Shown here: positions 34,733 through 39,728 of the stretch, in pieces
How positions within the stretch are numbered: position 1 is the stretch's first letter
How the letters are laid out: every line of letters starts with the position of its first letter
DNA from: Trueperaceae bacterium
Lineage (GTDB): Bacteria; Deinococcota; Deinococci; Deinococcales; Trueperaceae
Reading direction: 5' to 3'
Assembly: GCA_965213705.1 (NCBI GenBank)
Contig: OZ243913.1
Span: 3,488,001 to 3,552,000 of the forward strand
Length of the DNA: 64,000 nucleotides
The notes under the pieces: model-generated
Databases searched by the model: none
Seen by the model: only the letters and a program-made list of their open reading frames with translations
Told to the model about the DNA's origin: nothing
Made by a program: the position numbers and the translations under genes

Positions 34733-34837
34733 CTATACCGGCTGTGCTAGGCTGTGGGCGAAAATGGACTCAGGAACACAGCCCCACCAACACAGTCTCG
34801 GCAACACAGTCTCGGCAACCAAGACAGGCAGGAACAC

Positions 34838-35533
34838 ATGGCAGATGTGAAAACTTTTTTGACGGGGGTCCCTCTTTTCAAAGACGCCCCCGAACGCGCC
34901 CTCGAGATAGCGGCGTCGGTCATGCAGTTGCGCAAGTTCGATACCGGCAGCGTCATCTTTCAAGAGGGTGACGTCGGCGAAGCGCTCTACGTGCTCGTGG
35001 GCGGCCTCGTCAAACTTTCCAAGGTGGACTTGGGCGGTTACGAGAAAACCCTCGCCATTCTTCAGCCGCCCGAGTTTTTTGGCGAGATGGCGCTGTTGGG
35101 TGCCAAAACGCGGAACGCGACGGCGGAGGCCTTGGGCAGCGTCGAGGCTTACTTGCTGTTCGGCGACGACTTCAACAAGCTCCTCCAGACGTACCCGACC
35201 GTCAGCTTGAACCTCACCACGACGCTGGCCCAACGCCTGCGCGGCATGGACGACGAAGCGCAAATTCTGTCTTACAAGGACGCTCAAGGACGCGTTGCCT
35301 TCGTCTTGTTGCGGCTCTACCGCAGCGGCGTCATCGACCTGACCGAAAGCGGTCAGGCGCTCGTGCGCCTGACGCACCAAGACATCGCCAACCTGGCGGG
35401 CACGAGCCGCGAAACCGTGACCCGCGCCCTCAGGGTGCTCGAGAACGAACAAGTCATCGCCACCCGCCCCAAGGAAGTCGTTCTGACGGACGTTCAGGGA
35501 TTGGAAGAGATTTTGCACGGCATCAGGGAGTAG
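34838..35533 (+). CDS. Crp/Fnr family transcriptional regulator
   Basis: cNMP-binding FFGEMALL..RNATAEA and HTH THQDIANLAGTSRETVTR. Confidence 0.95.
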   Translation: MADVKTFLTGVPLFKDAPERALEIAASVMQLRKFDTGSVIFQEGDVGEALYVLVGGLVKLSKVDLGGYEKTLAILQPPEFFGEMALLGAKTRNATAEALGSVEAYLLFGDDFNKLLQTYPTVSLNLTTTLAQRLRGMDDEAQILSYKDAQGRVAFVLLRLYRSGVIDLTESGQALVRLTHQDIANLAGTSRETVTRALRVLENEQVIATRPKEVVLTDVQGLEEILHGIRE

Positions 35534-37462: not shown

Positions 37463-39463
37463 ATGGCAGCTCGAGACAGTCATTCCCAACGCCGCAGCAC
37501 TTACCTGCTCGTGTTGCCCCTTACCGTCATTGCCGTCGCCGTCACTTACCTGGTCGAACTCGGCCAAAGCAGTGTCGACCCGTTCAACCTAGTGGCGTTG
37601 CCCCTGCTGGCTTTGCTGTTCAGCCTGCTGGCGACCGCGCACCTGCTGAACTTGCTGAGCTTGCGCGCAGTCGAGGCCGGACTTTTCGCCACCGCCGCGC
37701 TCGCCTTTTTCGGAAAGCTCGGTCACACGCTTTTGTTTGCTTACTCGCCCTTCGAGCGGGCGCACGAGTTGAGCCAGGTTTTTATCTGGACGCCGTTCGT
37801 CTACGCGGTGGCTTTTCTGGTCGGCACGCCCAGGACGGGGTTGTACCGTGCCGGCGCGGTCTACTTTATGAGCGTCGGCATCGGCGTTTTTGCGGCGTTG
37901 CGGGGCGGCGCCCTGGGCGACTACCGGCTCGGTGAATACTACCTGGGCAACCTGGTGTTGCTCGCCCTTTTGTACCTCGTCGGCAGCCTGCGGGTGCGGT
38001 TGGGCGAGCTGCAGAGCAACTTGAGCGAAATGGCGCGCCTGGCGACCTCGGACTTTTTAACCGGGGTACCCAACCGGCGGCGCTTGGAAACGCAGTTGCA
38101 ACGCGAATTAGAACAGCACCGCCGCTACGGCGCGCCGGTCTCGGTGATTTTGTTCGACATCGACAACTTTAAAAGGTTCAACGACACCTACGGCCACGCG
38201 CTCGGCGACGGGGTGCTCAAAAAAGTGGCGAACTCGGTACAACACGAGTTGCGCTCGACCGACGCTTTCGGACGTTGGGGCGGCGAGGAGTTTTTGGTCG
38301 TCGCGGGCCACACCGACGCGCGCCACGCGACGCTGCTCGCCGAACGCTTGCGGCAGCGCGTCGAGGCGAGCGAGGTCGCGGGAGCCGGCCCGGTCACGGC
38401 CAGCTTCGGGGTGGCCGCGTGCCACGACGACCTCAGCTTAGAAACGCTCATCGAGCGGGCAGACGCGGCGCTCTACCGCGCTAAAACACTGGGCAAAAAC
38501 CGCGTCAGCCTCGACAGCCCGGACGGTTTACCGGCGGCGGTTGAGTTGCCGCAACTGGACTACCCGTTTGCCGAAGTGCTCAAAAAGCCCGACGCCGCGG
38601 TTGTGACGGCGGTAACGGCCTGGTTGGCGGGGTTCGGGCTCGGGCCTGTGCCCGCCGACTTGCGCGAACACGTGGCGCGCAGCTTCAGCTGCTTGGCTAC
38701 GACCCTGCACCCTTACGCGAGCAAAGACTGGCAGGTTTTGCTCGGCAAGTGGTACTGCTGGGCGTTTTTGCACGACGACCGCTGTGACGGCAGCGAGTTG
38801 GGACGGCAGCCGGAGCGGCTCGAAAGCTTGACCGACAGGCTGGCTGAGCTGTTCGCCGGAGCGCCGGTCCGGGCGGACGACGAACCCCTCGGCCGGGCGT
38901 TGACCGACCTGCGCGCCGAACTGCTGAGCGCGGCCGGCGACGTTTGGGTGGAGCAACTGAGTGAAGAGCTCGAGCGCTACTTTGCCGCCCTGGCTTGGGA
39001 AGCGCAGAACCGGGCCGACAACACCACGCCGAGCCTGAGCCGCTACTTAGAAATGCGGCCCGTCACGGTCGGTTTGCGGCTGGACGACCTGTTCAGCCGT
39101 GCCGACGGGCTGCACGTTCCAGAAGGCGTGCGCAACCTTGCAGGCGTGACCGCCCTGACCCGCTTAGCCAACGAAACCGTGTGTTGGGCCAACGACCTCG
39201 TGTCGCTCGACAAAGAGTTGCGGCAAGGTGACGTACACAACTTGGTTCACGTGTTGCAACACGCTCACGGCTTCGACTTGCAAAATGCGGTCCAGCAAGC
39301 GAGTTTGCAACACGACCAAACGCTGGCCCGCTACCTGTCGGCCGAACAGCACCTAAAAGAACGGCTCGACGGTTGGCGCGACTTAGACCTGTACTTGGAA
39401 TTGCTCAGGGCGCGCGTGCGCGGCATCTACGACTGGTCGTTGGTGTCGGGGCGGTACCGCTAG
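37463..39463 (+). CDS. Membrane-anchored diguanylate cyclase (GGEEF) fused to a class I terpene synthase domain
   Basis: About 5-6 TM helices; DFLTGVPNRR, FDIDNFKRFNDTYGHALGD, RSTD I-site, RWGGEEF; then HDDRCD (DDxxD), YLEMR, NDLVSLDKE (NSE) and WSLVSGRY. Confidence 0.9.
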   Translation: MAARDSHSQRRSTYLLVLPLTVIAVAVTYLVELGQSSVDPFNLVALPLLALLFSLLATAHLLNLLSLRAVEAGLFATAALAFFGKLGHTLLFAYSPFERAHELSQVFIWTPFVYAVAFLVGTPRTGLYRAGAVYFMSVGIGVFAALRGGALGDYRLGEYYLGNLVLLALLYLVGSLRVRLGELQSNLSEMARLATSDFLTGVPNRRRLETQLQRELEQHRRYGAPVSVILFDIDNFKRFNDTYGHALGDGVLKKVANSVQHELRSTDAFGRWGGEEFLVVAGHTDARHATLLAERLRQRVEASEVAGAGPVTASFGVAACHDDLSLETLIERADAALYRAKTLGKNRVSLDSPDGLPAAVELPQLDYPFAEVLKKPDAAVVTAVTAWLAGFGLGPVPADLREHVARSFSCLATTLHPYASKDWQVLLGKWYCWAFLHDDRCDGSELGRQPERLESLTDRLAELFAGAPVRADDEPLGRALTDLRAELLSAAGDVWVEQLSEELERYFAALAWEAQNRADNTTPSLSRYLEMRPVTVGLRLDDLFSRADGLHVPEGVRNLAGVTALTRLANETVCWANDLVSLDKELRQGDVHNLVHVLQHAHGFDLQNAVQQASLQHDQTLARYLSAEQHLKERLDGWRDLDLYLELLRARVRGIYDWSLVSGRYR

Positions 39464-39728
39464 TTAAAACGCCTACAGGGGTTAACGAGCCGTGGGCAAC
39501 GTCTGGCGCGCCAAGAAACTACCATCCGGTTTTAAGCCGGCTCGAGCGCTCGAAACACGCGTCCGAATGCAGAAAGCCCAAGACGACTTGTTAAACTGGA
39601 CTCATGCCAAGACCTGTCCTGAGCGTGCCCTTCTTGTGCCGGACCCTTGCTCGTCCCGCTTCGCTAGAGTCTGTGATTGACAGTATAAGTAACGAGTCTA
39701 TGGTCAACGAGTCTGCAAAGCGGACGCC

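Follow-up and report, generated by a model that had tools for sequence, protein, structure and literature searches.

What terpenes do for the bacteria that make them is, to our knowledge, largely open. Three class I terpene synthases (TS) are of particular relevance here, each reported as active in the form of an isolated recombinant enzyme: T-muurolol synthase, which makes T-muurolol from farnesyl diphosphate (FPP) (PMC5082573), and the pair RrNerS and RrBerS, which both yield linalool when given geranyl diphosphate (GPP) and convert FPP into nerolidol and bergamotene, respectively (PMC7192455). On the signalling side, RpfF of Burkholderia synthesizes the lipid signal DSF (diffusible signal factor) and is in direct contact with its receptor RpfR, which sets cyclic di-GMP (c-di-GMP) (PMC6361424); in a CqsS-Rv1625c chimera a six-helix receptor of a hydrophobic autoinducer gates a class III nucleotide cyclase (PMC4821796); and GGDEF domains need dimerization, with adjoining domains allowing or blocking the dimer (PMC7825114). 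Here we describe a gene that joins both worlds. It lies in a stretch of 64,000 nucleotides (the window) of contig OZ243913.1, from the assembly GCA_965213705.1 of a Trueperaceae bacterium (Deinococcota), and encodes a membrane diguanylate cyclase continued in the same frame by a class I TS. We consider, with a probability of roughly 0.45, that the protein is a terpene-signal synthase and its receptor-cyclase in one gene. This reading comes from the closest unfused relatives of the TS, most of which, in members of three further phyla, have sensor genes next to them; a constant pair of TS and sensor with an exchangeable output is what one sees where a signal is made by a synthase and perceived by its receptor.

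The fusion protein and its conservation

The open reading frame at 37463-39463 of the forward strand translates into 666 residues with no internal stop, as a preliminary description of this DNA had reported, and the five to six transmembrane helices announced there correspond to six hydrophobic segments within residues 13-183 (by hydropathy only). Both enzymatic parts scored far over the cut-offs of the profiles proposed for checking them, with 149 bits (cut-off 23.8) for Pfam GGDEF (PF00990, residues 194-347) and 146 bits (cut-off 23.7) for Pfam Terpene_syn_C_2 (PF19086, residues 429-622), and NCBIfam TIGR00254 gave 162 bits (cut-off 37). The last 307 residues matched 73 PDB sequences at E<=0.001, the top one being T-muurolol synthase (9hqi/9hqd, E 3e-40, query residues 5-306 of 307) and 10-epi-cubebol synthase being also among the best. 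The closest solved membrane cyclase was ImcA (8wcn), matching residues 112-349 (E 3e-27), and the helix preceding the GGDEF domain, which we take to be the dimer and signalling helix, aligns with the equivalent helices of the solved cyclases 5llw and 6et7.

All the motifs quoted in the preliminary description (RSTD, GGEEF, DDRCD, the Arg of YLEMR, NDLVSLDKE and WSLVSGRY) were found exactly where it had placed them, and its count of 45 residues from the sensor Arg (R532) to the first residue of the NSE motif (N577) is right; the motif list of PMC5082573 gives about 46. The TS domain thus has the DDxxD motif, the NSE triad, the sensor Arg and the RY dimer, and the cyclase has GG[D/E]EF, DxDxFK, the guanine-site N and D, the DxLT turn and RxxD. 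A diguanylate cyclase activity with feedback inhibition is predicted from motifs only, and from the motifs, the dN/dS values given below and the three active relatives we infer that the TS is catalytic. The fused TS is 37% identical to RrNerS and 27% to RrBerS. A C15 product would be the likeliest, because the characterized relatives use FPP. The product itself cannot be named from the product-specific NCBIfam equivalogs (isoafricanol, delta-cadinene, selinadiene, epi-cubebol), none of which was reached (best score 132 bits, cut-offs 400-680).

A search for the same architecture retrieved 17 other proteins with both domains, 37-87% identical over the TS part. Only one of them is named, from Deinococcus metalli (WP_184109956.1), and it is annotated only as a diguanylate cyclase, so that the fusion is hidden in the databases. 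These 17 proteins are decisive in rejecting an assembly chimera or a lost stop codon, which is also ruled out by the genomes described next and by contigs from two of two sequencing runs that bridge the junction with unchanged letters (the runs may be the source sample itself). The base composition of the two halves is similar as well (GC by codon position 0.65/0.44/0.82 and 0.69/0.43/0.81).

Within the phylum, we searched 364 Deinococcota genomes for PF19086 over its cut-off and found a TS in 22, 13 of the 128 in the same family and 9 of the 125 in a second family (f2), with none in the other four families. In 21 of these 22 genomes the TS forms the C-terminal part of a fusion with the membrane domain and GGDEF, counting one fusion cut by a contig end (G192) and another split over two contig ends (G132). 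The exception (G080) is a distant free-standing TS of 313 residues on a contig of 47% GC. Among the best 150 matches (265 bits and above) in 1.84 billion representatives, seven contain both domains, six of them with the same membrane domain and one a fragment, and no second, independent GGDEF-TS architecture was found. A scan of genome contigs by alignment of the whole protein was swamped by ordinary GGDEF genes; its 79 loci included no fusion and yielded relatives of the membrane domain lacking a TS.

Conservation among the fusions is high at the catalytic positions. GGEEF, RxxD, DxDxFK, DDxCD, NSE and WxxxxxRY are present in all 32 fusions compared, and all the metal-binding residues together with the GGDEF motif residues (DxDxFK, N, D, GGEEF) do not vary among the 29 fusions examined for them, even where identity drops to about 35%. 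R295 is invariant alongside RxxD, and 31 of the 32 fusions retain the sensor Arg, L140 having His. The linker always measures 12-14 residues (32/32), its sequence not being conserved. Four TS positions (R401, H416, D548 and R651) are kept in the fusions and not in free TSs. Over nine overlapping, non-independent pairs, the membrane part had a dN/dS of 0.12-0.67, compared with 0.10-0.34 in the TS and 0.04-0.25 in GGDEF. In the subclade of the window's genome one residue is deleted between the sensor Arg and NSE (45 vs. 46 residues) and Lys429 replaces the Asp/Asn of the relatives. One other fusion (L124:7344-9512) carries an insertion of 21 residues within the TS domain.

All trees were quick IQ-TREE searches with SH-aLRT support only. 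The membrane and GGDEF halves of the fusions come out as a single clade when 10 TS-free relatives are included (support 98), and in no tree are the fused TS domains mixed with the others, a separation supported at 26, 79, 86 or 99 depending on model and sampling. The trees of the two halves have 21 of 29 splits in common, with no conflict at support >=90 and a patristic correlation (r) of 0.98. The agreeing trees, the single clades and the constant linker length fit one old fusion event followed by joint inheritance of the halves. The protein of the window groups with family f2 and not with the other members of its own family, which together with the patchy spread suggests transfer or loss.

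The membrane domain matched no Pfam family, including MASE6 (PF20966), which was over its cut-off in one of 29 fusions and below it in one more; in the Atlas, MASE6, MASE2 and MASE5 clusters at 0.86-0.87 are leads only. GGDEF proteins without a TS begin with this domain too, at loci titled Bacillus, Rubrobacter, Ideonella, Piscinibacter and Calidithermus. The TS was therefore joined to the C-terminus of a membrane cyclase of a common type.

Unfused terpene synthases beside sensors

Among 103 genomes of Rubrobacteria (the class of G364; the unpublished genome G373 was left out of every count) 25 contain a TS, at 29 loci. The 3' neighbour is a GGDEF(-EAL) gene in 23, a PAS histidine kinase in four and a contig-cut PAS protein in one, and the remaining locus, a TS fragment, has none. 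EAL was confirmed by Pfam in the 14 partners scanned. The pairs are oriented tail-to-tail in 18 cases and in tandem in 10, in genomes that have only 7-26 GGDEF genes each (five genomes counted). The partners start with one and the same six-helix domain, which we have called A5 (loci L171-L198 and L282-L305). It carries ALPY and LWQF motifs, matches no Pfam family and is common to the kinase and GGDEF-EAL types of partner (E 1e-62). Both TS and A5 were found in 23 of the 103 genomes, TS alone in two, A5 alone in one and neither in 77, the unpaired cases being contig ends or a fragment, and by hand count 27 of the 30 copies of A5 adjoin a TS. The trees of sensor and TS have 15 of 22 splits in common, with no supported conflict, across layouts and output swaps. 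We think that A5 deserves a study of its own. At three loci (L181, L184, L188) the TS has a c-di-GMP gene at either end, one for a three-helix GGEEF cyclase upstream and an A5-PAS-GGDEF-EAL gene downstream.

The characterized synthases belong to such pairs. The TS at L174 is identical to RrNerS and that at L198 to RrBerS, and each adjoins an A5-GGDEF-EAL gene, while at L296 the TS agrees with T-muurolol synthase (9hqd) in every one of 326 residues, and its gene is followed by an A5-STAS gene. In the order Chloroflexales (that of G367) a TS was present in 34 of 151 sampled genomes, and in 26 of the 31 best TS matches A5 is located directly downstream, with STAS, kinase or PAS-GGDEF as output. 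At L296, and also at L297 and L298, a gene for an S-adenosylmethionine-dependent methyltransferase (L296:2461-3294) directly precedes the T-muurolol synthase gene, giving a run of methyltransferase, TS and sensor; the methyltransferase could modify the prenyl substrate. Elsewhere (L306, L308, L309) two tandem TSs precede a membrane protein that matches A5 weakly.

A similar picture was obtained from metagenomes. We collected 80 loci, 66 after rough de-duplication, of which seven are fused. A signalling gene lies within 600 bp at 37 of the 59 unfused loci; of the others, 11 show none within full flanks and 11 none within a short flank. With the same probes, 77 of 3319 genes (2.3%) of the window's own genome have a signalling gene nearby. 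In methanotrophs, at 11 loci (L205, L206, L208, L210, L217, L218, L222, L223, L225, L238, L250) a dCache_3-PAS-GGDEF(-EAL) gene stands directly upstream of the TS, two of them being named (Methylocaldum and Methylomicrobium lacus), and this extracytoplasmic Cache domain is compatible with a diffusible product. At four others (L272, L275, L276, L278) the TS is followed by a membrane histidine kinase with 4-5 helices whose sensor matches neither A5 nor the membrane domain of the fusion. The same group of TS has been recruited beside no fewer than four types of sensor. Two long proteins (P0032, 1617 residues, and P0164, 1542 residues) have four tandem TS domains, reminiscent of doubled geosmin synthases, and several members of their cluster are full-length.

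Possible roles of the fused synthase

The preliminary description had proposed that terpene production and c-di-GMP signalling are physically coupled. This much stands: the protein has two genuine and complete domains, both held by purifying selection, and it is no accident that terpene synthesis is paired with signalling. The two directions that it offered, c-di-GMP acting on terpene production or the TS fold gating the cyclase, were neither borne out nor contradicted, and the comparative evidence favours a third one that it did not contain, in which the TS makes the sensed input. TS and sensor remain constant and the outputs (GGDEF-EAL, kinase, STAS) are swapped, and for this reason the TS looks like the maker of what is sensed and not like a target of c-di-GMP. 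Applied to the fusion, the TS would turn FPP into a sesquiterpene or sesquiterpene alcohol, the product would pass into the membrane, where the predicted six-helix domain would perceive it, and the response of this domain would change c-di-GMP production by the GGDEF dimer. With its synthase tethered, such a cyclase would report its own terpene flux (prenyl-diphosphate supply or product retention) more than cell density. That the terpene is a signal is suggested by gene context only.

Several observations weigh against this reading. Its weak step is that the membrane domain of the fusion is not detectably related to A5: hhalign probabilities were 0.1-1.6% in four comparisons, the A5 profile did not match it, no cross-match of hidden Markov models between the two domains rose above background, and A5 turned up in none of the 364 genomes of the phylum. 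The two domains do have a TP/P motif in the fourth helix of both and a same-looking top Atlas cluster (a lead only). The fusion's membrane domain also occurs in five other genes of the same genome, all TS-free, so this family is not terpene-specific. The A5 profile was itself built from TS partners, A5 stands beside only one of the 19 weaker Chloroflexales TS matches, and in that order it is not exclusive to TS (of its 105 matches, spread over 63 of the 151 genomes, only 27 adjoin a listed TS). A Chitinophaga-type TS subclade has no signalling neighbour. The relatives are not independent either, with neighbouring genes co-diverging by linkage and the metagenome and genome sets overlapping. Furthermore, a receptor joined to its own synthase would be prone to saturation, and a P450 gene found beside the fusion in one genus (see below) fits an ordinary biosynthetic output.

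The order of events could be the reverse, with the TS as the sensor: binding of FPP or pyrophosphate and Mg would close its active site, the movement would reach the GGDEF dimer through the linker, and c-di-GMP would report prenyl-diphosphate status. Neighbouring domains do switch GGDEF through dimerization (PMC7825114), and the linker keeps its length in all 32 fusions. The fusion was never found split among the 21 genomes, and R401, H416, D548 and R651 set the fused TSs apart from the free ones. These residues may, however, be shared ancestry, and the linker is not conserved in sequence. Cyclases usually receive their regulatory input by way of the N-terminal helix, and in this protein that side is occupied by the membrane domain. 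As a sensory TS would also leave unexplained the extracytoplasmic dCache partners and the tail-to-tail pairs with kinases and STAS, we consider this alternative unlikely. The two enzymes might also be independent of each other, the fusion serving to co-express them and to hold the TS at the membrane, near prenyl diphosphates and where the product partitions. The membrane-GGDEF family works without a TS, no neighbour is conserved across the fusions, and the gene content is patchy (22/364), as independence would have it. A neutral fusion is nevertheless expected to split again, and none of the 21 fused genomes has an internal stop; co-expression with a random cyclase does not predict recruitment of the TS group beside four or more types of sensor, and we regard this explanation as quite unlikely.

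With the TS as the output instead, terpene synthesis would be switched by c-di-GMP that the GGDEF domain either produces or binds (at the RxxD site), as in local signalling between a cyclase and its effector. The invariant RxxD and R295 are in line with this, the GGDEF-EAL genes beside the fusion in five f2 loci and at L128 could form a local c-di-GMP circuit, and the neighbouring P450 in three of three genomes of one genus suggests a tailored product. On the other hand, RxxD is frequent in ordinary diguanylate cyclases. Kinase and STAS outputs, neither of which produces c-di-GMP, are just as much partners of the unfused relatives, and T-muurolol synthase, RrNerS and RrBerS are active as isolated proteins (PMC5082573, PMC7192455). 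We regard this direction, too, as quite unlikely. Hardly any credit is due to an artefact or a dead TS relic, the artefact being already refuted by the same architecture in independent assemblies from several sources. The one-residue deletion, Lys429 and the His that replaces the sensor Arg in one relative could be taken as decay, but purifying selection and the invariance of all metal-binding residues contradict it.

The reading of the fusion as signal synthase and receptor-cyclase has a wider version, which we put forward more tentatively: sesquiterpenes might be dedicated signals in at least four bacterial phyla, by way of synthase-receptor cassettes that include the A5 pairs, the dCache-GGDEF genes of methanotrophs and the self-sensing fusion of Deinococcota. 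If so, nerolidol, bergamotene and T-muurolol would be the already known ligands of three orphan receptors. A TS and a second-messenger enzyme in one chain, with relatives beside sensors, make terpene self-signalling directly testable, and the unfused cassettes, with their published products and orphan neighbouring sensors, are ready ligand-receptor candidates.

Gene context and comparison with known systems

The coordinates of the gene and its features are collected in Table 1. Around it there is little that could be called a cluster.

Table 1. Position of the fusion gene and its features in the window (aa, residues of the protein).
Feature	Position	Strand	Basis
Fusion gene P0001, 666 aa: membrane domain, helical connector, GGDEF, linker, class I TS	37463..39463	+	translation, Pfam
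Predicted six-helix membrane domain, aa 12-178; conserved P47, E71, K85, W109-x-P111, E158	37496..37996	+	hydropathy, conservation
Amphipathic helix with DxLT at its end, joining the last membrane helix to the GGDEF domain	37988..38050	+	sequence
GGDEF domain, aa 194-347, with DxDxFK, N240, D249, GGEEF	38042..38503	+	Pfam PF00990
RxxD inhibitory-site motif RSTD, five residues before GGEEF	38252..38263	+	sequence; 32/32 fusions
GGEEF active-site motif	38279..38293	+	sequence; 32/32 fusions
Linker, 14 residues	38507..38548	+	sequence strings of 32 fusions
Class I TS domain, aa 363-665, full length compared with T-muurolol synthase	38549..39457	+	Pfam PF19086, PDB 9hqi/9hqd
DDxxD motif DDRCD (D438/D439/D442)	38774..38788	+	sequence; 32/32 fusions
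Pyrophosphate-sensor Arg532 with T535, G537	39056..39058	+	sequence; Arg in 31/32 fusions
NSE motif NDLVSLDKE (N577/S581/E585)	39191..39217	+	sequence; 32/32 fusions
WxxxxxRY motif WSLVSGRY (R664-Y665)	39434..39457	+	sequence; 32/32 fusions

The gene is isolated, separated by 269 bp from the preceding acyl-CoA dehydrogenase-like gene and by 265 bp from the following gene for glucose-6-phosphate dehydrogenase (G6PD), for which there is a separate sigma-70-like site at 39677-39704. The preliminary description had noted that no prenyltransferase or P450 gene is adjacent; this holds in the window and not in a different genus (g13), where in three of three genomes a divergent cytochrome P450 gene (L122:5586-6980, L123:9874-11268, L140:9920-11284), with 7wzl as best PDB match, lies 65-95 bp from the fusion. 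The neighbours seen in the window are common only to G027, and no conserved neighbour or biosynthetic cluster was found across the 21 fusion loci. In five loci of family f2 a PAS-GGDEF-EAL gene is placed directly upstream of the fusion on the same strand, and at L128 a PAS/GAF-GGDEF-EAL gene is convergent with it. A search of the window for a c-di-GMP riboswitch or other RNA near the gene gave only four tRNAs. Two genes upstream (34754-35533) there is a Crp/Fnr-type cyclic-nucleotide-binding regulator, absent from that place in G027.

In the rest of the genome, profile searches found no class I TS other than the fused one, together with about 30 GGDEF matches, 10 EAL matches, a three-repeat MshEN protein, two polyprenyl synthases and six P450s, none of the latter adjacent to the fusion gene. 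One of the EAL domains (G000:C1:946833-947543) has an internal TGA and is possibly a broken gene.

The literature searched contains no description of a GGDEF-TS fusion or of TS-sensor cassettes, although the supplements of large TS surveys may list the proteins; as far as searched, each domain comes from a known family and the joined protein and the cassettes are undescribed. Like the fusion, the (+)-T-muurolol synthase of Roseiflexus castenholzii (9hqd, 9hqi) has the DDxCD, sensor Arg, NSE and RY motifs, but it is a free-standing enzyme of 326 residues, and the accessible text of PMC5082573 makes no mention of the neighbouring sensor. RrNerS (AHY47823.1) and RrBerS (AHY45426.1) of Rubrobacter radiotolerans are likewise unfused, and their partners have a different membrane domain plus EAL; the words "fusion" and "Deinococcus" do not appear in the main text of PMC7192455. 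On the cyclase side, ImcA (8wcn; PMC10904736) and the AdrA/MASE-type cyclases have the same succession of six membrane helices, helix and GGDEF, but carry no C-terminal enzyme domain.

The nearest functional parallels are found among signalling systems. Pfam and NCBIfam detected only the GGDEF and TS families in the fusion protein, with no homology to RpfF, RpfR, CqsA or CqsS. RpfF/RpfR would resemble it in logic, a lipid-signal synthase wired to a receptor that sets c-di-GMP, and differs in its fatty-acid signal, its soluble receptor and its two separate proteins; a relation in sequence is not expected. CqsS has six membrane helices, as predicted for the fusion, and the CqsA/CqsS system, whose signal is an alpha-hydroxyketone, has a histidine-kinase output and a separate synthase. 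The fusion would therefore at most work like RpfF/RpfR or CqsA/CqsS, without being a member of either. With autoinducer systems it shares a genetic link between the synthase of a small molecule and a sensor carrying a signalling output, by fusion here and by adjacency in the relatives, and if our reading is right, the fusion and the cassettes would be autoinducer synthase-receptor pairs with a new chemistry.

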